A DNA stretch of 64,000 nt. Origin: an uncultured Candidatus Saccharibacteria bacterium. GTDB lineage: Bacteria; Patescibacteriota; Minisyncoccia; Phycocordibacterales; DATDWN01. Of this stretch, positions 4,670 to 61,044 are shown piece after piece (positions within the stretch are counted from its first letter, which is position 1; each line of letters starts with the position of its first letter). The notes below the pieces were generated by a model that worked only from the letters and a program-made list of their open reading frames with translations, was not told the origin of the DNA and ran no database searches. Both the position numbers and the translations under genes were made by a program. Location: assembly GCA_964586695.1 (NCBI GenBank), contig CAZPGQ010000003.1:888-64887 (forward strand). The letters run 5' to 3'.

Positions 4670-5344
4670 CTATTCAACAAATTCTTTTATAATTTCTTCT
4701 TCGTCAGATGGAGATACAGATTTTTTAAAACGTGCACCAGAAACCCCATTCACCCGAGCTTTGCATTCATCCCAAGTTTTGTGAGTTTGAACAACCCCAT
4801 CCACCATACTCACATACGAATACGCCTTACTTTTTGATTTAGATTTTTTATCTGAAACAGTTTCACTAATTTTTATATCAACACCATATCTTTCTCGTGA
4901 TCCGTTATATAAAATAACCGGATCATTATCCGCAAAAGATGTAGCAATAACATCACATCTTTCGTTCCCTGCTGTACCACTGTGACCTTTTATTAACTGC
5001 CAGTTTATATTTTTGTGAACAGTAGCCTCTACCATTTCTTGCCACAAGTCTTTGTTCAAAACATCATCCTTTGTGGATGTCTTCCAATTATTTTTCTCCC
5101 AACCTTTCACCCATCGAGTGGCGCCATTTAGTACGTACGCAGAGTCAGTATACAAAGTTATTTCTTCATCCTTTCCAACAGCATTGAGTGCAGAAATAAC
5201 AGCAGTCATTTCCATTCTGTTGTTTGTGGTTTCATCTTCTCTACCTCCGATTTCAAAAGCTTTTTCATCGGATAAAATTATTGCACCCCACCCACCTGGT
5301 CCCGGGTTACCCCGAGAAGATCCGTCAGTAAAAATAGTTATCAT
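4670..5344 (-). CDS. rnhA: Ribonuclease HI with a C-terminal hybrid-binding (Cauli_VI-like) domain
   Basis: FTDGSSRGNPGPGGWG...TNNRMEMTAV...YTDSAYV...GHSGTAGNERCD is classic RNase HI. The C-terminal KAYSYVSMVDGVVQTHKTWDECKARVNGVSGARFKK resembles the RNase H1 hybrid-binding domain. The track's upstream start is TTG inside a hairpin; the ATG at 5342-5344 is preferred. Confidence 0.75.
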   Translation of the reverse strand: MITIFTDGSSRGNPGPGGWGAIILSDEKAFEIGGREDETTNNRMEMTAVISALNAVGKDEEITLYTDSAYVLNGATRWVKGWEKNNWKTSTKDDVLNKDLWQEMVEATVHKNINWQLIKGHSGTAGNERCDVIATSFADNDPVILYNGSRERYGVDIKISETVSDKKSKSKSKAYSYVSMVDGVVQTHKTWDECKARVNGVSGARFKKSVSPSDEEEIIKEFVE

Positions 5345-5362
5345 AATATTTATTATAGCAAA

Positions 5363-5385
5363 AGGGCGCCTCAATTTCAGGCGCC
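5363..5385 (-). terminator. GC hairpin with a T-run on the minus strand
   Basis: gggcgcctgaaattgaggcgccc followed on the minus strand by ttttgc. Confidence 0.4.
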
Positions 5386-9796: not shown

Positions 9797-9826
9797 TGTA
9801 CCATAACAATATTGGCATTATAAAAT

Positions 9827-9945
9827 TTCATAATCTGGATGAAATTCAAGGCGGAATGAAAAAATGCGAGGAGCCTTACTATAACGTAAGGTGACGAGAA
9901 TTTTTGATATTCCAACGCAGAAGTTCGCCAGATTTGGAATTTTAC
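9827..9945 (+). repeat. Copy A of a ~110 nt structured repeat element (conserved ~75 nt core within a covarying closing stem, U-tracts on both sides)
   Basis: Core ttcaaggcggaatgaaaaaatgcgaggagccttact...gtaaggtgacgagaatttttga.attccaacg is near-identical to 32700-32772. It is flanked by ttcataatctgg / ccagatttggaa, which pair with each other. Confidence 0.5.
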
Positions 9946-23995: not shown

Positions 23996-24400
23996 ATGAG
24001 TGCAGAAGATTTTGTTTTCACCCTGATAAACATCTGGTTTGGACACTTTCTTGCCGACTTTTTCCTTCAGACAACGGAAATGGCGGACAACAAGTTTGTG
24101 CAGACAAGAAATGGAACCTACTGGTGCACGATTCATGTAATCGTATACACCTTAACCATAATGCTATTCCTTGAACAGAAAGATGTTGTTGCCTTCTTAG
24201 GAATCTTCATTCCCCACTGGATTATCGACAGATACTCCTTGGCATACAAGTGGATGAAGATTACAGGCGGTTCAGCAATGCTTTCTGGAAATAAGGAGGT
24301 AGCAAGTCACCCGTTTGGTCCAGTTGTTTACGTTGTAATGGACCAGATGCTTCACCTTTTCTCTCTGTATCTTTTGTTGAGATACATATCGGTCTTCTAG
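23996..24400 (+). CDS. DUF3307-like small polytopic membrane protein
   Basis: aaaggag RBS; three TM helices. The resemblance to the DUF3307 family is from memory only. Confidence 0.45.
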   Translation: MSAEDFVFTLINIWFGHFLADFFLQTTEMADNKFVQTRNGTYWCTIHVIVYTLTIMLFLEQKDVVAFLGIFIPHWIIDRYSLAYKWMKITGGSAMLSGNKEVASHPFGPVVYVVMDQMLHLFSLYLLLRYISVF

Positions 24401-30991: not shown

Positions 30992-31066
30992 GCACCCGTA
31001 GCTCAACGGATAGAGTACCGGTCTTCGGAACCGTGGATGTGGGTTCGATTCCTGCCGGGTGCACCA
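30992..31066 (+). tRNA. tRNA-Arg (anticodon UCG), CCA encoded
   Basis: GCACCCG TA GCTC AACGGATA GAGT A CCGGT CTTCGGA ACCGT GGAT GTGGG TTCGATT CCTGC CGGGTGC A CCA. One C-U mismatch at 27:43 and two GU pairs in the T stem. The acceptor resembles E. coli tRNA-Arg. Confidence 0.7.
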
Positions 31067-31212
31067 TTAATATAGCTATAAAACACGAAGTGTTTTGATC
31101 GTTGGCAGGAATCGAAGCCTGATTGAGATATTTTACGAGTTTACGAAGTAAAATATCCAATTGGGGTACTGATCCTGTAAGGATCGATTCCGTTAGTATA
31201 TAATTCACTTAC

Positions 31213-32679
31213 ATGAATTTTCCTATCCCAAAAGAGGTTTCATATGTAACAAAACAGCTAGAAAATGCAGGTTTTGAGGCTTTTGTCGTGGGTGGATGTG
31301 TAAGAGACCTTATTCTAAACAAGGCACCAAAAGACTGGGATGTAACAACAAATGCAACCCCAGAGCAGATTATCGCTTTATTTCCAAAAACTTTTTATGA
31401 AAACACCTTTGGAACTGTCGGCGTTGTGAACGAGGAAACTACTGAACCAACCTTAGTAGTAATCGAAGTCACTCCATACAGAATAGAAGGGGAGTATTCT
31501 GACAATCGACATCCAGATACTGTTATTTTTAGCCAAAAAATAGAGGATGATCTAAAAAGAAGAGACTTCACAATGAATTCTCTTGCTTATTCTGTATCAA
31601 AAAAAGAAATTATTGATTTATTTGATGGTGAGAGAGATATAAAAGACAAAGTAATTCGAACTGTAGGGGATTCTGTAAGCAGATTTAAGGAAGATGGACT
31701 CAGAATACTACGGGCTGTGCGTTTTTCTGCTGAACTTGGCTTCGAAATAGAAGCAGGGACTGAAAAAGCCATATTTGAAAACTCAGAACTACTGAAAAAT
31801 ATTTCTCTAGAGAGAATACGAGACGAATTTACAAAGATGATAATGTCGGCAAGGCCCATGGATGGCTTAATTGCAATGAAAAAAATGAGTCTTTTGTCGT
31901 ACATAATTCCTGAATTGAAAAATACTATAGGTGTAGAACAAAATAGGGCACACTCATACGATGTATGGGAGCATTTACTTAGATCTCTACAGGGAGCTGC
32001 AGATAAAAATTATCCTTTGGACCTGCGTTTAGCGGCTTTGTTGCACGATATTTCAAAACCAGAGTCACGAAGATGGGGAACAGAACAAAATACTTGGACT
32101 TTCTATGGACATGAAGTACTTGGAGCTCGTGTTGCAAAGAAAATTCTTACAAATTTAAAATATCCGACGAAAATAATAGAAAAAGTTACAAAAATGATTC
32201 GTTGGCATATGTTCTTTTCTGATACAGAGCAAATAACGCTCTCAGCGGTCCGTAGAATGATTGTAAATGTTGGACGAGAGAATATATGGGATTTGATGAA
32301 TCTACGCATATGCGACCGTATAGGGACTGGTAGACCCAAAGAAGACCCGTACCGCCTCCGAAAATATCATGCAATGATAGAAGAAGCTCTGCGAGACCCG
32401 ATTTCTGTAGGAATGTTAAAGATAGATGGTAAAAAAATAATGGATGTTACAGAAATTACTCCTGGACCACGCATTGGTTACACTCTACACGCACTCTTAG
32501 AGGAAGTTTTGGAAGATCCAAAGAAAAATACTGCAGAATATCTAGAAGAAAGAGCGAAAACTCTTGTAAATTTACCTATAGAGGAGCTGGAATCACTAGG
32601 AGAAAAGGGAAAACAGTCAAAAGAAGAAGCTGATGAGGAGCAAATAAAGAAAATCCGCTCTAGCCATCACGTTAAGTAA
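31213..32679 (+). CDS. cca: CCA-adding enzyme / tRNA nucleotidyltransferase with a C-terminal HD domain
   Basis: GGCVRDLIL...DWDV polymerase-beta head motif; HD domain (LLHDISK). Confidence 0.85.
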   Translation: MNFPIPKEVSYVTKQLENAGFEAFVVGGCVRDLILNKAPKDWDVTTNATPEQIIALFPKTFYENTFGTVGVVNEETTEPTLVVIEVTPYRIEGEYSDNRHPDTVIFSQKIEDDLKRRDFTMNSLAYSVSKKEIIDLFDGERDIKDKVIRTVGDSVSRFKEDGLRILRAVRFSAELGFEIEAGTEKAIFENSELLKNISLERIRDEFTKMIMSARPMDGLIAMKKMSLLSYIIPELKNTIGVEQNRAHSYDVWEHLLRSLQGAADKNYPLDLRLAALLHDISKPESRRWGTEQNTWTFYGHEVLGARVAKKILTNLKYPTKIIEKVTKMIRWHMFFSDTEQITLSAVRRMIVNVGRENIWDLMNLRICDRIGTGRPKEDPYRLRKYHAMIEEALRDPISVGMLKIDGKKIMDVTEITPGPRIGYTLHALLEEVLEDPKKNTAEYLEERAKTLVNLPIEELESLGEKGKQSKEEADEEQIKKIRSSHHVK

Positions 32680-32681
32680 AA

Positions 32682-32798
32682 CCTCAGATTTGAGTATAGT
32701 TCAAGGCGGAATGAAAAAATACGAGGAGCCTTACTTAGAGGTAAGGTGACGAGAATTTTTGAAATTCCAACGAAGAAATATGCCAAATCTGAGGTTTT
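32682..32798 (+). repeat. Copy B of the ~110 nt structured repeat element
   Basis: Same core as 9845-9917. It is flanked by cctcagatttg / caaatctgagg (a perfect 11-bp pair), with a U-tract on both strands. It lies immediately after the cca stop codon. Confidence 0.5.
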
Positions 32799-33304
32799 AC
32801 ATTTAAAAAACCGCCCAATGAGGATGATTCGTACGTTATCTTTGTACAAATACTCATCATTGAGCGGTTCGAGGGAAGAAGAGCTCTACAGTTAATGACG
32901 CAGTTAGTAAACAGCATCACGAATTTAAAATAAAATAGTAGATAAAGTGGGGATGTGTTGATTGTCCAACCACACATAACCAGAGAGTCTTCTTAAGAGA
33001 GGAGGTGCGCACCTCCTAAAGCACATATATTTAAAGAACAACTGAGAAGTTCCATCAAACGCAGGGTTTATTGCATTAAATTTCAAATCTCGATCTGCCA
33101 TTCATTGTATGTTTTTTAAAAAGACAAGTAAAGGACAGTAAAAGACAAATGTGTGGATAACTTTGTAAAACAACTAAAATTACCCCATCTACGTTGTTAG
33201 ACTTCAGTAAAATAATCCTCACTTTATATTTATAAAGCTCGAATTATTTTCCTTGTCTGCCTAGTATCTGAGGCAATTTAATTTGTTTTACTAACAAGTG
33301 TCTT

Positions 33305-34102
33305 TTATAAATCAATATCTATCTGAACAGGGCAGTGGTCAGATCCCAAAACATCCTTATGGATTAAAGCTTTTTTGACTTTTCCTTCTAGTCTTTTGCT
33401 TACAAAAACATAGTCAATTCTCCAACCAACATTTCTCTCCCTCGCGTTTGCAAAATGACTCCACCAAGTATAGTGACCATTTCCTTTTGTAAAAATTCTA
33501 AATGTATCTACAAAATTTTCATCTATCATATTCTGTATTCCTTCTCTTTCTTCTTTTGTAAATCCTTTTTTACCAATATTATCTTTGGGTCTAGCGAGGT
33601 CATCTTCTGTATGTGCAACATTTAAATCACCACAAAATACAACTGGCTTCTTTTTGTCTAACTCTTTTACATATGACAGAAAAGCAGGGTCCCACTGTTT
33701 GTGACGGAGTCCTACTCTTGAAAGGTCGTCTTTTGCGTTTGGTGTATAGACTGTAACTATATAAAAATCATCATATTCTAGTGTGGTAACCCTACCTTCT
33801 GTGTTTGGATCACCGTAACCGTTCTCATCCCAGTCATATTTCTTCGTAATATTCTCTGGCAAACCCAATAATATAGAGAGGGGACTTTTCTTTGCGAATA
33901 TCGCAGTGCCACTATAGCCTTTTCTTTCTGCAGAGTTCCAATATTCACTATATTCTGGCAAATCTACTTCACTTTGGTCTTCCTGAGCTTTTGTCTCTTG
34001 CAGACAAAGCAAGTCTGGCTTGTATTTTTCTACAAACGGCACAAACAAACCTTTTTTATGAACTGCACGTATTCCGTTTACATTCCAAGATATTATTTTC
34101 AT
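33305..34102 (-). CDS. xth: Exodeoxyribonuclease III
   Basis: MKIISWNVNGIRA...LCLQETK...GDLNVAH...SDHCPV: the ExoIII/APE1 fold. Confidence 0.85.
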   Translation of the reverse strand: MKIISWNVNGIRAVHKKGLFVPFVEKYKPDLLCLQETKAQEDQSEVDLPEYSEYWNSAERKGYSGTAIFAKKSPLSILLGLPENITKKYDWDENGYGDPNTEGRVTTLEYDDFYIVTVYTPNAKDDLSRVGLRHKQWDPAFLSYVKELDKKKPVVFCGDLNVAHTEDDLARPKDNIGKKGFTKEEREGIQNMIDENFVDTFRIFTKGNGHYTWWSHFANARERNVGWRIDYVFVSKRLEGKVKKALIHKDVLGSDHCPVQIDIDL

Positions 34103-34167
34103 AAACAAAGTTTAACATAAAACGAATCGCCCGCACCTACAGCGTTGTAAGTGCGAGCGAATTAGAG

Positions 34168-34569
34168 CTAGTGTCGTTCGGTGAGTCGATTGAAAAACTC
34201 ACCGAGTGCGCGCTCGTACTCGGGTGAACCTCGACGGACGACTCTGAAGTGACGGCGAGCGAGTTCGATGACAGAAATCCGAATAGCCTCACCGGAGGTG
34301 TAAGCATTCGGGGAATACATGTTGACTCTGTCATTCTGGGTCTCCGGCTCCGGACCAACAACTACATAGACTTGTTCCCCAGAACTGACCAAGTCGCCCA
34401 GATGAACCGTCATCAGCTCCCTTTCGAACCCGGTGTGAAGTGAACCATGACCCATGTGAGCCTTGGCTTCTTCAGTATTGATTGAATCCACTCGTCTTAT
34501 TCCCGCAAGTAGCAGTGCAATAAGAATTACACCTGTACTCAATGCGAGGATTTTCTCTTTCCAATTCAT
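34168..34569 (-). CDS. GC-rich islet gene: membrane-anchored hypothetical protein
   Basis: aggagg RBS 7 nt upstream of the ATG; N-terminal TM LALSTGVILIALLLAGI. GC is visibly higher than the ~35% background, and a GC hairpin (34137-34167) follows the stop. Confidence 0.45.
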   Translation of the reverse strand: MNWKEKILALSTGVILIALLLAGIRRVDSINTEEAKAHMGHGSLHTGFERELMTVHLGDLVSSGEQVYVVVGPEPETQNDRVNMYSPNAYTSGEAIRISVIELARRHFRVVRRGSPEYERALGEFFNRLTERH

Positions 34570-34607
34570 GCTTGGCCTCCTGCCCTAGTTTGAAGTATGA
34601 AATATTT

Positions 34608-34628
34608 AATATATTTGTCAAATATATT
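34608..34628. other. Perfect 10-1-10 bp palindrome (AATATATTTG t CAAATATATT) abutting the recombinase stop codon; candidate recombination or operator site
   Basis: Read directly: both arms are exact reverse complements. It sits between the xerC-like stop (34629-34631) and the GC-rich gene. Confidence 0.4.
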
Positions 34629-35552
34629 TTATCCCTTCTTATGGAATTTCTTATGGACGTCGCGGAGATGTTTGTCCGTCACATGAGTATAAATCTGTGT
34701 AGTTATAATACTAGAGTGGCCTAACATAGCCTGAACTGAACGAATATCTGCTCCATTTGAAAGCAAATCTGTTGCAAATAGGTGACGCATTGTGTGGGGA
34801 GTAACTTTTTTTGAGATTCCCGCCTTTATTGCGTGCTTTTTTACAATTCTCTCTATGGACCGGTTATTTAGAAAACCATACTCTCTTGTAGTGTTTTTCT
34901 TAAAACTTTTTTCATCAGCTGGAGAAAAAAGTGCATTACTTATATCTTTTCTTACAGCTAAGTATTCTTTTACGGCCTTTCTTGCTCCGTCAGATATAAA
35001 AACCAGGCGAACCTTGCCACCTTTTCCTCTGACAGAAAGCTCGTCTGAGTTTAGATTTATATCGCGAGTTAGCGATCTTAACTCTGAAAGACGCAGTCCT
35101 GTAGAGAAAAACAACTCCAAAATAGCCTTGTCGCGCAAATCTCTTTCATCTTTACCACCTGGAGAAGCAATAAGCCGAGCCAGTTCTTCTTCTGTTATAA
35201 GATCAAGAGACCTTTCAGAAACTTTTGCTAGTTCTATCCTGTCTGCAGGCAAAGTCTTTATCTCTTGTCTTGCCATGTATTTGAGAAATGCTCTCAGGGC
35301 TATTAGATAATAGTTCTGTGTTTTTCGAGACAAAGTCTCACTATTATTCTTGTGTCCTGTGGGTTGTCTGTTGAGCCAAAGGCGAAATTGACGGACCAAA
35401 TCATCTTTTATATCCGCTGGGTTATCAGTTTTGATAAAATCGAGGAATCGGTTGAGGTATCGGTCGTAATTTTCGACGGTTTTGACAGAACGACCCTTTT
35501 CTATCTCTACATATTCCAAAAATTGTTGTTTTAAGCGCTTTAAAGATGCCAT
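34629..35552 (-). CDS. xerC: Tyrosine site-specific recombinase (XerC/XerD family)
   Basis: N-terminal SAM-like core-binding domain. Catalytic region GLRLSELRSL (the Arg), HTMRHLFAT (His-x-x-Arg), and GHSSIITTQIYTHV (His and the Tyr nucleophile). Confidence 0.8.
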   Translation of the reverse strand: MASLKRLKQQFLEYVEIEKGRSVKTVENYDRYLNRFLDFIKTDNPADIKDDLVRQFRLWLNRQPTGHKNNSETLSRKTQNYYLIALRAFLKYMARQEIKTLPADRIELAKVSERSLDLITEEELARLIASPGGKDERDLRDKAILELFFSTGLRLSELRSLTRDINLNSDELSVRGKGGKVRLVFISDGARKAVKEYLAVRKDISNALFSPADEKSFKKNTTREYGFLNNRSIERIVKKHAIKAGISKKVTPHTMRHLFATDLLSNGADIRSVQAMLGHSSIITTQIYTHVTDKHLRDVHKKFHKKG

Positions 35553-35664
35553 ATTTAAGTTAATTATAGCATTAAGTCATAATATTGTGCGACATGGGTC
35601 GCTCGGGAAGGGGGTACTCTTTGGGCTTGCAAATGCCTATCTTTTGTGATATCTTATAGGAACA

Positions 35665-35931
35665 ATGCTTACAAAGACAAAGAAATCAAAAGTTATAAAG
35701 GATGTCCAAGTACACGACAAAGATACTGGTTCTCCTGAAGTACAGATAGCTATTTTGAGCCGTCGAATAGACGAGCTTGCATCTCACTTGAAGAAAAATG
35801 CAAAAGATAATCACTCAAGACGAGGATTGCTACAAATGGTAGCAAGTCGAAAGACTCACATGAAGTATCTAGAAAAGAAAAATCCAAAAAGATACGCTGC
35901 ATTAAACAAGAAGTTAGGTTTGAAGAAATAA
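35665..35931 (+). CDS. rpsO: 30S ribosomal protein S15
   Basis: GSPEVQIAILSRRIDELASHLKKNAKDNHSRRGLLQMVASRK is the S15 signature; a terminator lies at 35941-35968. Confidence 0.85.
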   Translation: MLTKTKKSKVIKDVQVHDKDTGSPEVQIAILSRRIDELASHLKKNAKDNHSRRGLLQMVASRKTHMKYLEKKNPKRYAALNKKLGLKK

Positions 35932-36056
35932 TCTCCTCAAAAACAAACTGAAAAGTTTGTTTTTGATTTTGGACAGAGTAAGCATTTACATTTGAAATAG
36001 TATACAATTAGATTGTTAGCTTTTTTGAAATTTTAGAATTAATTTTTTTTATATAT

Positions 36057-37909: not shown

Positions 37910-39469
37910 ATGGCTGTCTCAAAAATTTATTCAGCTCAAGCAACACTACTCTCTGCACAACAAATAGATATAGAAGTGGACCTTTCAAAAGGGCTCCACT
38001 CTTTTTCTATTGTTGGGTTAGCGGACAAGTCAGTTGATGAGTCAAAGGATAGAGTAGGAGCAGCAATAAAAAACTCTGGTTGGAAGTCGCCGAAAAACAA
38101 AAATCAAAAAGTTGTAGTTTCACTGGCACCTGCTGATATCAAAAAAGAAGGTCCTTTGTTCGATTTACCTATCGCATTGGCTTACCTTATATCCTCCGGA
38201 GACATAGATGCCGAGGTAGAACACAAGTTATTCATTGGGGAACTATCTCTGGACGGAAAATTGAGACCAATCAAAGGAGCTTTGCCTATAACACAGATGG
38301 CGAAGAAAAAAGGTTTCACCGAAATATTTTTACCTTTAGAAAATGCGGAGGAAGCGTCCAGCATAGATGGTATAAAAGTTTTTGGGGCAGAGTCATTACT
38401 CGATGTAGTAAAGCATATAAACACAAAAGAAAGTGAGGATGAGGATGCTCTACCAAAAGTAAAACTGAAAGAATATAAAAGTAAAAAGAAAAAGAAAACA
38501 AAAAGAGAGATAGAGGTGGATTTTTCCGATGTCAAAGGTCAAGAGTCAGCAAAAAGGGGATTGGAAATTGCAGCGGCAGGTGGACACAACATAATAATGT
38601 ATGGGCCACCAGGAACAGGGAAAACGATGCTGGCCAAAGCATTTTCTCATTTACTACCAGAACTTTCTTTTGATGAAATGCTAGAAGTTACTTCTATCTA
38701 CTCTATTGGAGGAATGCTTCAGGAAGGACTTATCGAGAACCCACCATTCAGATCACCGCACCACACGGCTTCATACGTTTCACTCGTCGGTGGTGGAACA
38801 AATTTAAAGCCTGGGGAAGTTACACTTGCTCACAAAGGAGTATTATTCCTAGATGAATTTCCAGAGTTTGATAGAAAAGTTCTAGAGACACTCCGACAGC
38901 CTTTGGAAGATAGGGAGGTGACAGTTTCTCGTGCAAAAGGTTCTGTAAAATACCCTGCACATTTTATACTGGTTGCCACCATGAACCCCTGTCCGTGTGG
39001 AAACTATGGAGTAAAAGGTAAAGACTGTGTTTGTTCTGCTGTGGCTATAGAAAGATACAAAAGGAAACTGTCTGGACCGATAGTAGATAGAATAGACTTG
39101 TGGGTGGAAGTTTCAAAAATAGAACACGGAAAACTTACAGACTCACGCGACCTGCACGAGAAAACAGAAAATATTATTCCGCGTGTAGAAAAAGCCAGAA
39201 AACTCCAAACAGATAGGTACAAAGATATAAAAATAAAAACTAATGCAGAGCTCTCCGCAAAGGACCTTATAACAAATATAAAACTGAGCGAGAAAGTTAA
39301 AGAACTACTGAATGCTTCGGCAAAACAACTGGACCTCTCTGCTCGTTCATATCACCGAATAATAAAGCTAGCCAGAACAATAGCAGACCTTGACGGGGTA
39401 GAGGATATCGGAGAAAACCACATACTCGAAGCATTACAGTACAGACCCAAGAAATATCAGACATTATAG
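37910..39469 (+). CDS. comM: YifB/ComM family Mg-chelatase-like AAA+ ATPase
   Basis: N-terminal Lon-like domain; Walker A GPPGTGKTML; the zinc-finger insert CPCGNYG; the C-terminal YifB domain. Confidence 0.8.
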   Translation: MAVSKIYSAQATLLSAQQIDIEVDLSKGLHSFSIVGLADKSVDESKDRVGAAIKNSGWKSPKNKNQKVVVSLAPADIKKEGPLFDLPIALAYLISSGDIDAEVEHKLFIGELSLDGKLRPIKGALPITQMAKKKGFTEIFLPLENAEEASSIDGIKVFGAESLLDVVKHINTKESEDEDALPKVKLKEYKSKKKKKTKREIEVDFSDVKGQESAKRGLEIAAAGGHNIIMYGPPGTGKTMLAKAFSHLLPELSFDEMLEVTSIYSIGGMLQEGLIENPPFRSPHHTASYVSLVGGGTNLKPGEVTLAHKGVLFLDEFPEFDRKVLETLRQPLEDREVTVSRAKGSVKYPAHFILVATMNPCPCGNYGVKGKDCVCSAVAIERYKRKLSGPIVDRIDLWVEVSKIEHGKLTDSRDLHEKTENIIPRVEKARKLQTDRYKDIKIKTNAELSAKDLITNIKLSEKVKELLNASAKQLDLSARSYHRIIKLARTIADLDGVEDIGENHILEALQYRPKKYQTL

Positions 39470-39471
39470 AT

Positions 39472-39503
39472 TCTAAAAAATCTCCTCGCTGGAGATTTTT
39501 TAG
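39472..39503. terminator. Bidirectional terminator (13-bp stem) between comM and the M23 peptidase gene
   Basis: ctaaaaaatctcctcgctggagattttttag. Confidence 0.55.
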
Positions 39504-40540
39504 AATGGGTTTCGAGCGCCTCTAATTTCAAAGTGTAGATGTATTCCAGTATGTCCAGTTACCTGACCAGAATTACCCATATATCCTATAACTTGACCCT
39601 GCTTAACGTCATCTCCAGCTGAAACTGCTGTACCACTTAGATGACCATACAATGTCTGAGTTCCATTTCCATGCTTAAGTACAATGTATGAACCGTATCC
39701 TCCATTCCAACCAGAACTCTTTGAAATTAGAACTTCTCCATCTGCTGAAGCATAAATCTTTGCTCCATAAGAAGATGCTAGATCAACTCCGTTGTGGCCA
39801 TGAACTCCTTGTGTTTTGATACCTCCAATAATAGGTCGCATATAGTATCCATTGTATGAAGGAACAGAACTATTAGATTTTGTAGTTTTTGAGCCATTAT
39901 TTGTGGCAGGAACTGAAACAGCCTCACCATCTGGCACAAAAATCACATCGCCAACTGCAATTTTAGAATTTTTTGCTAGGTTGTTATACTGCAGAACCTC
40001 ATCAAGATCTCCTTTATGTTGTTTTGCGATGCTTTGAAGTGTGTCTCCAGATTTAACAGTGTGTTGTATTCCAGAAATAGGCAAAATAACCAGAGTCTGA
40101 CCAACTGAAATTGAGTTTCCCTTTATATCATTTCCCCAGCGAATAGTATTTACAGAAACACCGAACATTTTAGCTATTGCTGGTAAAGTATCACCCTGAT
40201 GGACTACATAAAGACTAATTTGATCGTTATCTACAACTTTTGAGTCCGGTGAGACTTGAGTTTCTGTTGCAAGGGAATTACCGGCAACAATAACAGAAGA
40301 ATCCTTTGTGGTTGAAGCTTTTGGATCTGGAGTTATTACAGCCTGAAGTAGCGCCATGTTTTGAGAATTTGTCTCAATCTCCTCAGCCATAGCAGAATCC
40401 GCACAAAACAGCCTGAACACTGAACACGCAACATCACCCACACTTGCGTTTGTGTGAATTGGGGCTAAAAATAACGTCGAAATCAAAATTGAAGGGATAA
40501 CTGACGTTCGTATGTTCACCGAGGTGATGACTGATCCCAC
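39500..40540 (-). CDS. M23 family metallopeptidase with two LysM domains
   Basis: Two LysM repeats (GDTLPAIAKMFGVSVNTI, GDTLQSIAKQHKGDLDEV); M23 motifs HNGVDLAS and GNSGQVTGHTGIHLHFEIR. Confidence 0.8.
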   Translation of the reverse strand: MGSVITSVNIRTSVIPSILISTLFLAPIHTNASVGDVACSVFRLFCADSAMAEEIETNSQNMALLQAVITPDPKASTTKDSSVIVAGNSLATETQVSPDSKVVDNDQISLYVVHQGDTLPAIAKMFGVSVNTIRWGNDIKGNSISVGQTLVILPISGIQHTVKSGDTLQSIAKQHKGDLDEVLQYNNLAKNSKIAVGDVIFVPDGEAVSVPATNNGSKTTKSNSSVPSYNGYYMRPIIGGIKTQGVHGHNGVDLASSYGAKIYASADGEVLISKSSGWNGGYGSYIVLKHGNGTQTLYGHLSGTAVSAGDDVKQGQVIGYMGNSGQVTGHTGIHLHFEIRGARNPF

Positions 40541-58374: not shown

Positions 58375-59715
58375 ATGATGGATAACAAAAAACTTTGGGA
58401 TAGTGTTTTGGTAGAGATGGAGTTAACTTTATCTAAACCAAATTTCAATACTTGGTTTAAAGATACATCCATAATCAAACAAGAAGACGGTGCAGTTTAT
58501 CTTGGAGTCCCAAATACATTTGTTCAAGACTGGCTTGGTAGTAAATTTCACAACCAAATATTAAAAGCCTTAAGAAATATTTCTAGCACAATACAGTCTC
58601 TTCACTATATTATTTCAAAAGAGGAAATGAAGGATAGACCTTCCCAAGAAAAGATCCCTCAACAAACAAGAGAGCTCCCGATAGCAGATACCTTTATAAA
58701 CAAAGAAGACAACCTGAACCCTAGATATACTTTTGAGTCTTTTGTTGTTGGCCCATTTAACGAATTCGCCCACGCTGCCAGCCAAGCAATTATTAAAAAA
58801 CCTGGAATTGTATATAACCCTTTGTTTATATATGGAGGCACAGGTCACGGAAAAACACATCTTATGCAGGCGGTGGGGAACCACCTGAAAAATTCTAGTA
58901 ACAAAAAGGTGTTTTATACTACGTCAGAAAAATTCTCTCAAGAATACGTTAATGCTCTACAGTTAAACAAACCTAATTTCTTTAAAGAAAAATATAGAAA
59001 GTATGATGTTCTTATTATGGACGATATTCAGTTTTTCTCTGGCAAAATGCAACTTCAGGAACAGCTTTTTCATCTTTTTAACCATTTATATGAGAACAAC
59101 AAGCAGATTGTATTTTCATCAGATAAGCACCCTGGCTTAATCCAAGATCTAGAAGATAGACTAAAGAGTCGTTTTAGTGCTGGTATGATTGTTGATATAC
59201 CAACACCAGACAACGAGTCGAGAGCTGCCATAATACGAACAAAATCAGCTTCAAGTAAGTACCCTTTATCAAAAGAGGTTATAGATTACCTTGCTTACTC
59301 TATAACAGGGAATATTCGAGAGCTTGAGGGAATTATAAATTCTGTTACTTGTCAGTCTGATTTAAAGGAAAGGGAACTATCATTGGTAGAAGTAAAGAAT
59401 TTTGTAAAAAACAACACAAAACCGAAAAAACTAGTATCAACAAAGGAGGTTGTTAAAGCTGTTGCTGAGTTCTATAACATAGAAGAACAATTAGTATACG
59501 ATAAAACTAGAAAAAAGGAGGTTATTAAACCTAGACAGGTGATTATGTTTATTTTAAGGGAAGATTTTAATATATCTTATCCAGCCATAGGAGAAAAACT
59601 GGGTGGTAGAGACCATACAACAGTGATGCACTCTTGCGAGAAGATAAAGAATGACATGAAAGCAGATGAGAATTTGGTTCAAGAAATCACTCAATTGCGG
59701 TCTATCTTTGTGTAA
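58375..59715 (+). CDS. dnaA: Chromosomal replication initiator protein DnaA
   Basis: AAA+ Walker A GGTGHGKTHL; sensor motifs; C-terminal DNA-binding domain (HTTVMHSCEKI). Confidence 0.95.
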   Translation: MMDNKKLWDSVLVEMELTLSKPNFNTWFKDTSIIKQEDGAVYLGVPNTFVQDWLGSKFHNQILKALRNISSTIQSLHYIISKEEMKDRPSQEKIPQQTRELPIADTFINKEDNLNPRYTFESFVVGPFNEFAHAASQAIIKKPGIVYNPLFIYGGTGHGKTHLMQAVGNHLKNSSNKKVFYTTSEKFSQEYVNALQLNKPNFFKEKYRKYDVLIMDDIQFFSGKMQLQEQLFHLFNHLYENNKQIVFSSDKHPGLIQDLEDRLKSRFSAGMIVDIPTPDNESRAAIIRTKSASSKYPLSKEVIDYLAYSITGNIRELEGIINSVTCQSDLKERELSLVEVKNFVKNNTKPKKLVSTKEVVKAVAEFYNIEEQLVYDKTRKKEVIKPRQVIMFILREDFNISYPAIGEKLGGRDHTTVMHSCEKIKNDMKADENLVQEITQLRSIFV

Positions 59716-59943
59716 AAAACTGTGTATAGTGTGTAGATAAGCTATTTAAAATCCTGTGTAATCGTGTTAATTAGATTTAATAACTTTGTAAAAGTTAGAG
59801 TTTTCCACACTTTTACCACAGTTATCCACATGTATATTTGTCATAATATGGCTATATATATAGATTTTATAGAGTAATCCAGTTATATACAGGACTAGTA
59901 GTAGTAGATTTCTTAAATAAATAAAAAGACTAAAATTAATACT
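59716..59943. promoter_or_regulatory. Probable oriC: DnaA box cluster plus an AT-rich DNA-unwinding element between dnaA and dnaN
   Basis: gttttccacacttttaccacagttatccaca (consensus TTATCCACA plus variants) at 59799-59829; a reversed box tgtgtagataa at 59737-59747; and an AT-only tract atatggctatatatatagattttatagag. Confidence 0.6.
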
Positions 59944-61044
59944 ATGAATATAGAGTGTATAAAAGATAAGCTTTCATATGCGGTAGCAAAGGCAGAAAGG
60001 ATTACAGCAAAGAACATAACCTTACCAGTTCTGAGTTGTATACTACTTGAAGCAAAAGACTCTACTTTGACTATTAGATCAACAAACTTAGATCTTGGTT
60101 TAGAAATAACTGTACCTGTTAAAGTAAACAAACCTGGAAAAATAGCTGTCTCAGGTTCAATCTTGTATAGCTTTATATCAAACATAACCAATGATAAAAA
60201 CGTAACATTGGAGGCAATAGACGGAAACTTAAAAGTTTATACAAAACATTCAGAATCTATTATAAAAGCATTTCCTGTAGATGATTTTCCTAACATACCA
60301 AAGGTTATAAATGAAAAATCTTTTACTTTTAATGTCCCAAACTTAATAAAAGGTTTTAAATCTGTTATGTATAGTTCTTCAGTTTCTACTATACGGCCAG
60401 TTTTATCTAGTATTTTACTTGCATCTGAAGAGGATAGTGTTGTTTTTGTTGCTACAGACTCATTTAGATTGGCTGAAAAAAGAGTTGGAACAAAGAATCA
60501 TAAAGAATTTAATCAGATACTTATACCATTTAAGAATGTTGGAGAAATAATTAAGACATTAGAAGATATAAAAGAGGACGCTCAAGTTTATTTAAATGAA
60601 AATCAAATAGCTTTTCATTATAACGACATCTACATAACCTCTAGGGTTATAGATGGAACATTCCCCGACTATAAACAGATTATTCCAAAAGAGACAAAAA
60701 CAGAGGTTACTTTGTTAAAACAGGACTTTTTAAGTAGTCTTAGAATATCAAATATCTTTTCAGATAAATTTAGTCAGGTTACATTTTATATTTCACCAAA
60801 AGATAAAATTTTTAGAATTACTACAAAAAATATGGATGTAGGTGAAAACATAAACAACCTCGACGCTGTTATAAAAGGGGAGGAGTTAACAATTAGTTTT
60901 AACTACAAATACATTATTGATTGTTTTCAGTCTATAGAATCTGACTCTGTTACTCTGATGTTATCTGATATGAGTAGAGCAATGGTTATTAAAGGGACTA
61001 ACGATAAGTCGTTTTTGTATTTAGTAATGCCAATGAATAAATAG
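59944..61044 (+). CDS. dnaN: DNA polymerase III beta sliding clamp
   Basis: Three-domain beta-clamp, 366 aa, directly after dnaA. Confidence 0.9.
   Translation: MNIECIKDKLSYAVAKAERITAKNITLPVLSCILLEAKDSTLTIRSTNLDLGLEITVPVKVNKPGKIAVSGSILYSFISNITNDKNVTLEAIDGNLKVYTKHSESIIKAFPVDDFPNIPKVINEKSFTFNVPNLIKGFKSVMYSSSVSTIRPVLSSILLASEEDSVVFVATDSFRLAEKRVGTKNHKEFNQILIPFKNVGEIIKTLEDIKEDAQVYLNENQIAFHYNDIYITSRVIDGTFPDYKQIIPKETKTEVTLLKQDFLSSLRISNIFSDKFSQVTFYISPKDKIFRITTKNMDVGENINNLDAVIKGEELTISFNYKYIIDCFQSIESDSVTLMLSDMSRAMVIKGTNDKSFLYLVMPMNK

Follow-up and report, generated by a model that had tools for sequence, protein, structure and literature searches.

Analysis of a 64,000-nt stretch of DNA from a Paceibacterota bacterium (contig CAZPGQ010000003.1 of assembly GCA_964586695.1, hereafter referred to as the window) revealed a small gene cassette between xer, encoding an Xer-type tyrosine recombinase, and xth, encoding exonuclease III. 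This segment, at approximately 34121–34628, is probably one allele of a strain-variable accessory-gene slot between these two core genes, in which alleles are exchanged by recombination and the palindrome beside xer represents the −35 region of a promoter. A sequence-only reading of the same DNA had proposed that the palindrome, the recombinase and the short guanine-cytosine (GC)-rich gene of the cassette, orf133, form an integration module. The part of that proposal which regarded the gene as accessory, strain-variable cargo held, as in close relatives orf133 was absent and the difference ran exactly from the stop codon of xer to the promoter of xth, but the cargo did not prove to belong to an Xer integration module. 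The anatomy of the cassette, its presence, absence or replacement among strains, the lack of a conserved or duplicated recombination site and the divergence tracts in the flanks were all directly observed. The features of the locus are as follows.

34629–35552, minus strand: xer, Xer-type tyrosine recombinase of 307 amino acids (Pfam Phage_integrase), core gene
34121–34628, minus strand: strain-variable cassette (promoter, ribosome-binding site, orf133, terminator), unalignable with loci L007, L084/L008, L086 and L083
34608–34628: perfect 10-1-10 palindrome AATATATTTGtCAAATATATT, adjoining the TAA stop codon (34629–34631) of the xer open reading frame (ORF)
34594–34621, minus strand: predicted sigma-70-like promoter of orf133, consisting of TTGACA (34621–34616), a 16-nt spacer and CATACT (34599–34594)
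34576–34581, minus strand: Shine-Dalgarno sequence AGGAGG, 6 nt 5′ of the orf133 ATG, read directly
34168–34569, minus strand: orf133, 133 amino acids, with an N-terminal transmembrane helix, a His-cluster helix, an SH3-like beta-barrel and a C-terminal helix (predicted)
34127–34160, minus strand: intrinsic terminator hairpin of the cassette, 15 pairs with a T-rich tail
34109–34117, minus strand: extended −10 promoter of xth, TGtTAAACT, 6 nt 5′ of the ATG at 34102, right limit of the variable slot
33305–34102, minus strand: xth, exonuclease III (Pfam Exo_endo_phos, 4e-31), core gene flanking the slot

Several of these features had been correctly recognized in the sequence-only reading, namely the perfect 21-bp palindrome abutting the recombinase stop codon, the strong ribosome-binding site of orf133 and the Xer family of the recombinase. 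The GC-rich hairpin terminator was found as well, as a strong hairpin of −25.4 kcal/mol (z = −6.35), although at 34127–34160 and not at 34137–34167 as had been given; its two G-U pairs form only in the RNA of the minus strand, and its stem, GCTCGCA...TGCGGGC, was found only with cassettes of the orf133 family.

Close strains, defined here as contigs encoding an identical rpsO protein or an identical Xer protein, carried five unrelated alleles in the stretch that leads from the stop codon of xer to the promoter of xth.

Allele (a): orf133 cassette, in the window and L089, at least 9 contigs from at least 8 independent samples
Allele (b): gene-less, 131-bp long hairpin, in L086, L087, L088 and L090
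Allele (c): 521 bp, 47% GC, 123-amino-acid lipoprotein gene on the opposite strand, in L084/L008
Allele (d): 404 bp, 25% GC, 115-amino-acid membrane protein gene on the opposite strand, in L007
Allele (e): 1.44 kb, genes for a HATPase_c_2 protein and a DUF4325 protein, in L083 and L092

Its recovery from that many contigs and independent samples shows that the orf133 cassette did not arise as an error of assembly. The palindrome, orf133 and the hairpin were present or absent jointly across the alleles. At the left junction the alleles share only the xer stop codon, the last codon of xer itself being different (G, Q or M), and at the right junction they share just ~20 nt before the xth ATG. With these boundaries, what varies is precisely the stretch of dispensable DNA that separates the stop codon of one gene from the promoter of the gene that follows.

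Some of the alternative contents could be described further. In L084 (2547–2918, plus strand), the 123-amino-acid lipoprotein has the lipobox LMSGC, and its gene is followed by a GC-rich terminator of its own that adjoins the xer stop codon, while the gene in L007 (1601–1948, minus strand) encodes a multi-pass membrane protein at 25% GC. The pair in L083 (1696–2960; also in L092) encodes a 325-amino-acid HATPase_c_2 protein and a 96-amino-acid DUF4325 protein, which match the N-terminal part of the PADLOC DrmA model with E-values of 1e-17 and 2.5e-3, respectively, and may be defence-related. In L012 (5900–6760, the same as L095:3080–4000), a direct repeat of the 15-mer AATTAGTTGACATTT occurs at the xer stop codon and upstream of an orf133 homologue, bracketing a methyltransferase cassette; since each copy is a −35 region, it seems that the slot can hold a stack of cassettes whose promoters are alike.

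The genes around the slot are arranged in a conserved order, in which NYN and rpsO point away from xer and xth, and cca points toward them. The order rpsO, xer, xth, cca with these orientations was retained in 56 loci from genomes and 41 from metagenomes. The gap between xer and xth was 35 bp or less in roughly one third of the loci, and 60–2300 bp with unrelated content in the others, including methyltransferases, TrmB-like regulators, an AAA ATPase, a major facilitator superfamily (MFS) transporter and a nucleotidyltransferase. Inserts longer than 300 bp were counted at four junctions of the region.

xer|xth: fraction of loci 0.40
rpsO (S15)|xer: fraction of loci 0.35
xth|cca: fraction of loci 0.97
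p284|NYN: fraction of loci 0.66

Junctions without xer were thus just as variable, and the variability at xer|xth is not owed to xer. Another strain-variable junction was seen at about 39469–40540, after a Mg-chelatase/ComM-like gene, where the window has a LysM/M23 peptidase gene on the minus strand, L083 a spermine-synthase-like gene and L084 an unrelated ORF of 309 amino acids.

The way in which the alleles are exchanged was visible in the flanking genes. Comparison of the window with L007 gave no mismatch over 824 nt of xer and then 14 mismatches in its last 100 nt, all of which were synonymous; the cassettes were unalignable, and xth was 5.3% diverged. The window and L089, which have the same cassette, were identical over a 1.34-kb tract (34721–33378) in a background of 7% divergence, and their xer genes differed at 51 sites upstream of 34721. 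The last ~70–100 nt of xer were tightly linked to the cassette, and this linkage is robust despite the caveat on assemblies given below. A recurrent recombination breakpoint at 34722–34728 was considered and rejected, as a table of variable sites over six alleles showed a fine-grained mosaic and no fixed point. No direct or inverted repeats were found at the cassette junctions. Since the tracts reach into both genes, the alleles are replaced outright and flanking repeats are lacking, homologous recombination in the conserved flanks probably accounts for the exchange; site-specific insertion would not give this pattern of divergence and replacement.

The palindrome lies within the promoter region of the cassette. 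A promoter scan identified TTGACA-16-CATACT on the minus strand with 10 of 12 consensus matches, and the dyad of the palindrome is centred exactly on TTGACA, the −35 hexamer. The closest homologous cassette, in L093, encodes a protein 46% identical to that of the window, and there the TAA of xer is followed by AATATATTTGACAA, a 17-nt spacer and TATAAT, i.e. a perfect TTGACA-N17-TATAAT promoter at the aligned position. The left half of the palindrome and TTGACAA are identical between the two loci, whereas the right arm is not conserved, so that L093 has no palindrome. Among ~150 orthologous xer loci, the full palindrome was absent, and its left half with TTGACAA recurred in L093 alone. A search for further copies or half-sites had been suggested by the sequence-only reading; a sequence search gave no further copy in the 64-kb window, and the half-site that recurs is this −35 region. 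The palindrome is thus the upstream/−35 part of the cassette's own predicted promoter, and its symmetry would be an incidental feature of the AT-rich DNA upstream of a promoter, or an elaboration specific to this lineage.

Across the window, 8 palindromes reach an arm length of 10 bp or more, compared to 0.58 expected from shuffled sequences. Seven of them have arms of 12–18 bp and resemble terminator hairpins, several being located at gene ends, and the one at 34608–34628 is the shortest of the 8 and the sole one composed almost entirely of A and T. A palindrome with arms of 10 bp is expected in about 4 of 10 shuffled windows, and by itself the palindrome at 34608–34628 is statistically unremarkable. 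Its folding energy as RNA, −3.2 kcal/mol, is too small for a terminator.

An operator role had been offered as an alternative in the sequence-only reading and is compatible with the promoter role; orf133 would then be repressed by a regulator that binds as a dimer to the 10-1-10 dyad covering the −35 hexamer. The perfection of the dyad, its exact centring on the hexamer and its occurrence as a single copy in the window speak for such a site, yet the dyad symmetry is not conserved in the sole homologous promoter, that of L093, the cassette has no regulator gene, and in AT-rich DNA such a palindrome would arise in ~40% of shuffled windows. We regard an operator as unlikely.

Neither did the palindrome prove to be an Xer recombination site, as the sequence-only reading had supposed. 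Tyrosine recombinases need a central region of 6–8 bp between their binding arms. The arms of the palindrome are 1 bp apart, as opposed to the 6–8 bp of dif-type sites, and no conserved motif followed the xer stop codon across ~70 distinct sequences. Taken together with its absence from the other xer loci, the lack of a further copy in the window and the low folding energy of its RNA, these results led us to reject the palindrome as a conserved Xer site.

The recombinase itself appears to be a bystander. The Xer protein matched Phage_integrase (PF00589) with an E-value of 5.2e-38 over residues 119–295 and a SAM-like N-terminal domain (PF02899) with 4.3e-12 over residues 9–96, in addition to SAM_1, and its translation contains TGLR, GKGGKVR, HTMRH, LGH and IYTH, which we take to be the catalytic R-K-H-R-H-Y set from general knowledge of the family motifs. 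Its scores on the NCBIfam models, with the equivalog cut-offs in parentheses, were 239.4 (329.6) bits for XerD, 238.4 (335.15) for XerC and 220.4 (220) for XerA_Arch. We collected ~150 orthologues with 53–100% identity (75 genome loci and 74 metagenome loci), located in conserved rpsO/xer/xth synteny, and every orthologue with at least 53% identity came from Patescibacteria/Paceibacterota, the closest named one being from Zambryskibacteria. The conserved NYN/rpsO/xer/xth/cca arrangement indicates that xer is a vertically inherited core gene and not the integrase of a mobile element. We infer that Xer is a housekeeping recombinase with no part in the movement of the cassette.

The position of the locus on the chromosome was also determined. 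The window contains dnaA and dnaN (58375–61044), and both the minimum of cumulative GC skew and the divergence of gene orientation fall at ~31–36 kb, which places the locus close to the origin and not at the terminus, as the sequence-only reading had stated; being near the origin, it is not a housekeeping dif site. Around 31000–36000, gene orientation changes from predominantly minus-strand on the left side to predominantly plus-strand on the right side, at a distance of 23–27 kb from rnpA/yidC and dnaA/dnaN, and the replication origin of this genome may not be adjacent to dnaA.

A different element is associated with xer at its other end.

35581–35595, minus strand: ATGTCGCACAATATT, motif linked to the 5′ end of xer, conserved phylum-wide

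The exact 11-mer TGTCGCACAAT occurred once each in 85 of 175 Paceibacterota loci and is single-copy in the window. Wherever its position could be computed, it was near the 5′ end of xer, mostly within ~100 nt and up to ~170 nt away, in either orientation. In part of these loci a leaderless xer starts with this sequence as its first codons (MSHN), and elsewhere it lies 0–18 nt upstream of the −10 element; its conservation goes well beyond that of the adjacent coding DNA. When the aligned xer flanks were read, no inverted partner of the 11-mer was seen at a spacing of 6–8 bp. The 11-mer is a better candidate for an xer-linked cis-element than the palindrome, though without a second arm, and could serve as an operator or a recombinase half-site. 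A literature search on Xer/dif in Patescibacteria and on the 11-mer returned nothing relevant, the sole sequence match being an unrelated polymerase chain reaction primer. An invariant 11-mer found phylum-wide at the 5′ end of xer could merit a study of its own.

The composition of orf133 differs from that of its surroundings. Its GC content was the highest among the 58 ORFs of the window (0.504 against a mean of 0.371 with a standard deviation of 0.033, i.e. about 4 standard deviations above), in agreement with the sequence-only reading, and its GC content at third codon positions (GC3) was 0.496 against a window mean of 0.291. The homology search that the sequence-only reading had called for, on a protein in which it saw no recognizable motif, likewise gave no match in Pfam, NCBIfam, PADLOC or the Protein Data Bank (PDB). 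There was no tblastn match of orf133 in 50,697 phage records, and a metagenome scan with the alignment of the orf133 family gave no match either. The family had 9 representatives among 1.84 billion protein cluster representatives; judged by these sequence comparisons, it is a very small family restricted to Patescibacteria. The window has a second compositional outlier at 23996–24400 on the plus strand (GC3 of 0.515, compared to 0.291 on average), possibly a further gene of foreign origin.

The AlphaFold model of the orf133 protein (predicted local distance difference test score, pLDDT, 84.8) consists of the transmembrane helix, a long helix continuing from it, the small SH3-like barrel and the C-terminal helix, and a Foldseek search with this model returned nothing significant (best E-value 0.086). 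In the family alignment, AHxGHExxH is conserved on the long helix, as are GDL and GTPEY motifs; most members have HxGHExxH, and the Glu of HExxH is replaced in the window copy (HMGHGSLH, i.e. H-x2-H-x3-H; residues 38–45, 34435–34458) and in P0002. The AHxGHExxH stretch resembles a zincin motif or a three-His metal site. A role of the protein would lie in an accessory function of the envelope, possibly with metal binding. A GGAGG-like ribosome-binding site was found at the matching place in every family member with DNA available. A non-coding RNA in the GC-rich segment was rejected on account of this site, the family-wide protein motifs and the lack of an Rfam match at E ≤ 1, and an origin from phage or defence systems was rejected as well, in view of the negative tblastn and PADLOC results.

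The most distant family member, P0009, is located beside rpoD and alaS in a contig of 55% GC, where its composition looks native, which suggests that GC-richer Patescibacteria are a reservoir of the family. DNA uptake from such organisms would bring the cassette in, and homologous recombination in the conserved flanks would then allow it to enter and spread. At its other end, the strong intrinsic terminator would insulate xth, which has its own promoter.

This promoter defines the right-hand limit of the slot. In most Paceibacterota loci examined, TGnTAnnnT ended ~5–8 nt 5′ of the xth ATG, whether or not a cassette was present. As the extended −10 promoter of the window is 6 nt before the ATG, this implies that xth is transcribed from its own promoter as a predicted leaderless mRNA. 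Extended −10 elements of this type a few bases 5′ of an ATG are common in the window, e.g. at 34109–34117 (xth), 35553–35580 (xer) and 5336–5363, and imply leaderless or nearly leaderless mRNAs, as far as can be predicted from their placement.

Several observations weigh against exchange of the cassette by homologous recombination. Firstly, the orf133-family gene adjoins xer in all five xer-linked contexts, on its downstream side in three of them (window, L093, L012) and in the gap that separates it from rpsO in the other two (L099, L100), and the xer-linked members have remained GC-rich (54–62% GC compared to 37–40% of the hosts; GC3 of 70–76% compared to ~26–38%). Secondly, conservation is much higher at the ends of the cassette than inside it: when the window was compared with L093, the left end was identical at 17 of 17 positions and the segment from the orf133 stop codon to xth, which includes the terminator hairpin, at 58 of 62 (94%), whereas the first 105 codons of orf133 were merely 48–50% identical at the nucleotide level. 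This pattern, which could be due to recent conversion of the ends or to strong constraint, is the main point in favour of a mobile cassette, since a mobile unit with functional ends would show it likewise. Thirdly, the best match to Escherichia coli dif in the window, GGTGCGGGCGA-TTCGTT-TTATGTTAAAC (34110–34137; 19 of 28 positions, 17 of 22 in the arms), falls on the right junction, where it is made up of the right arm of the hairpin and the xth promoter. Lastly, the mosaic data derive from metagenome assemblies including Logan contigs, in which strain-chimeric contigs could imitate breakpoints, and no donor of the cassette was identified. A second hairpin, GGTGAGT-N10-ACTCACC (34180–34203), was noticed inside the 3′ end of orf133; it is conserved in L093 and lies within a tract of ~130 nt that is ~93% identical between the two cassettes, compared to ~50% elsewhere.

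The first three of these observations bear on the possibility that the adjacent Xer inserts or exchanges the cassette in the manner of an integrative mobile element exploiting Xer (IMEX) or an integron, with the palindrome, the 13-6-13 hairpin duplex or the dif-like 28-mer as the site. Such a mechanism would fit the direct contact of a variable cassette with a tyrosine recombinase, the conserved cassette ends, the location of the family beside xer, upstream or downstream, in 5 of the 6 contexts whose neighbours could be interpreted, and the YCGCAY shared by the hairpin arms and the xer-linked 11-mer on reading of the sequences. However, a dif match of at least 19 of 28 occurs ~0.5 times per shuffled window, and its XerD-like half is the extended −10 element of xth, present in most loci regardless of the cassette. 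The 11-mer TTATGTTAAAC (34110–34120), with one mismatch allowed, occurred 8 times in the window against 7.7 expected. Since these frequencies are at the level of chance and other alleles show no conservation of the upstream half, TTATGTTAAAC was rejected as an XerD arm and the 28-mer as a dif site. The palindrome fails for its 1-bp spacer and its absence from other xer loci. Moreover, the filled, alternative and gene-less alleles have no site in common and no flanking repeats, the cassettes bring their own promoters, some of them on the opposite strand, and the divergence tracts reach into both flanking genes. On the integron-integrase model TIGR02249 the Xer protein scored 137.2 bits against a cut-off of 265, and on NF011946 79 bits against 435, so that an integron-type recombinase was rejected. 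Overall, exchange by Xer is highly improbable. The integration module of the sequence-only reading was abandoned on the same grounds: alleles are replaced outright with no shared or duplicated junction site, the tracts extend ~100 nt into xer and also into xth, and junctions away from xer are equally variable. A second dif-like match, at 5336–5363, also reads as a TGCTATAAT promoter followed by a leaderless ATG. Promoters joined to an ATG in this way account for the best spurious dif-consensus matches of the window, and we note that in such genomes AT-rich promoters and leaderless gene starts mimic dif-like sites and palindromic 'recombination sites'.

A related proposal would treat the orf133-family cassette itself as a small mobile element which has the flanks of xer as its target and is inserted by Xer through the hairpin duplex, or a folded form of it, together with TGTCGCACAAT, amounting to an integron- or IMEX-like form of gene capture specific to the candidate phyla radiation (CPR). 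In that case the 17-nt left end, the 13-6-13 hairpin and the 3′ tract would be its conserved parts. We consider this extremely improbable.

Proteins of the orf133 family might also be functional partners of Xer, for instance a membrane-anchored accessory or regulatory factor, in keeping with the position of the gene next to xer in the window, L093 and L012 (downstream) and in L099 and L100 (upstream). This is very unlikely: the gene was present in merely 5 of ~150 xer loci and varied among near-identical strains, P0009 is not beside xer, and orf133 has its own promoter and terminator and a foreign composition. Besides, the five contexts collapse to roughly two independent arrangements. As a group of uncharacterized membrane proteins that stay at high GC content inside GC-poorer genomes and recur beside xer, the family is nevertheless worth a study of its own.

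The gene-less allele of the slot turned out to be one copy of a family of imperfect-hairpin repeats of ~130 nt, whose positions differ between strains.

Copies in the window: 33170–33301, minus strand; 32665–32796, plus strand; 9810–9941, plus strand
Other copies: L086:2840–2972, L009:5920–6050, L010:1161–1291, L012:655–785, L013:4519–4651

RNAalifold analysis of six copies yielded 42 pairs, 23 of which showed compensatory double changes, and invariant G-U pairs on one strand. The compensatory changes and the one-strand G-U pairs suggest that an RNA structure is under selection. The repeat had no Rfam match even at E ≤ 1; for this reason, and because it proved to be a multi-copy repeat, signal recognition particle (SRP) RNA, 6S RNA and other known RNAs were rejected as its identity. 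With its strong covariation and no Rfam match, it could merit separate study. Like the enterobacterial repetitive intergenic consensus/intergenic repeat unit (ERIC/IRU) elements and Correia repeats, it is a long imperfect palindrome of ~125–130 nt, intergenic and multi-copy with strain-variable positions; unlike them, it has an unrelated sequence, a Paceibacterota host, strong compensatory changes and G-U pairs on one strand.

Overall, the locus represents an ordinary case of small accessory genes being swapped between core genes. Its value lies in the scale and the host, as the swapping takes place one cassette at a time, with five alleles, in reduced CPR genomes whose mechanisms of gene flow are poorly known.

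Among known systems, the single Xer-like gene with a conserved adjacent cis motif, here the 5′ 11-mer and not the palindrome, recalls XerS/difSL and XerH/difH. XerS and difSL are genetically linked (PMC2731167). In our case, however, no two-arm site of ~28–31 bp conserved across relatives was found beside xer, the 3′ palindrome is unconserved and its arms are 1 bp apart, the position is close to dnaA and the skew minimum and not at the terminus, and the Xer protein of the window reached 117 bits on the XerS model, for which the cut-off is 267.

IMEX such as CTX-phi, TLC and the gonococcal genetic island integrate through XerCD into an intact dif at the terminus and are flanked by dif or dif-like hybrid sites. 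The cassette resembles them as DNA of foreign composition beside a component of the Xer system. It differs in that the alleles replace one another with no shared site, that they have only the xer stop codon and the −10 promoter of xth in common at the junctions in place of bounding dif or dif-like sites, and that the locus lies beside the recombinase gene and not at dif. Compared to integrons, the likeness consists of an Xer-related tyrosine recombinase beside small exchangeable cassettes, of which this one ends in an imperfect hairpin. Here, by contrast, the cassettes are at the 3′ end of the recombinase gene, in the same direction for this one and on either strand among the alleles, with promoters of their own and no array; the hairpin is specific to one gene family, no R″/R′ core sites were seen on reading the junctions and the hairpin, and the Xer protein failed the integron-integrase model.

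The closest resemblance is to the flexible genomic islets, hotspots between core genes that bacterial pangenome work has described as exchanged via homologous recombination in the flanks. The slot differs from those in its very small size (0–2.3 kb, with one or two genes), in the promoter and terminator that every cassette brings along, in its host, a CPR bacterium whose genome is reduced, and in the like behaviour of several junctions nearby. What the slot shares with them is its conserved core flanks with several unrelated alleles among close strains, limits of non-homology at functional boundaries (the stop codon and the promoter), and mosaic tracts of divergence that extend into the flanking genes.

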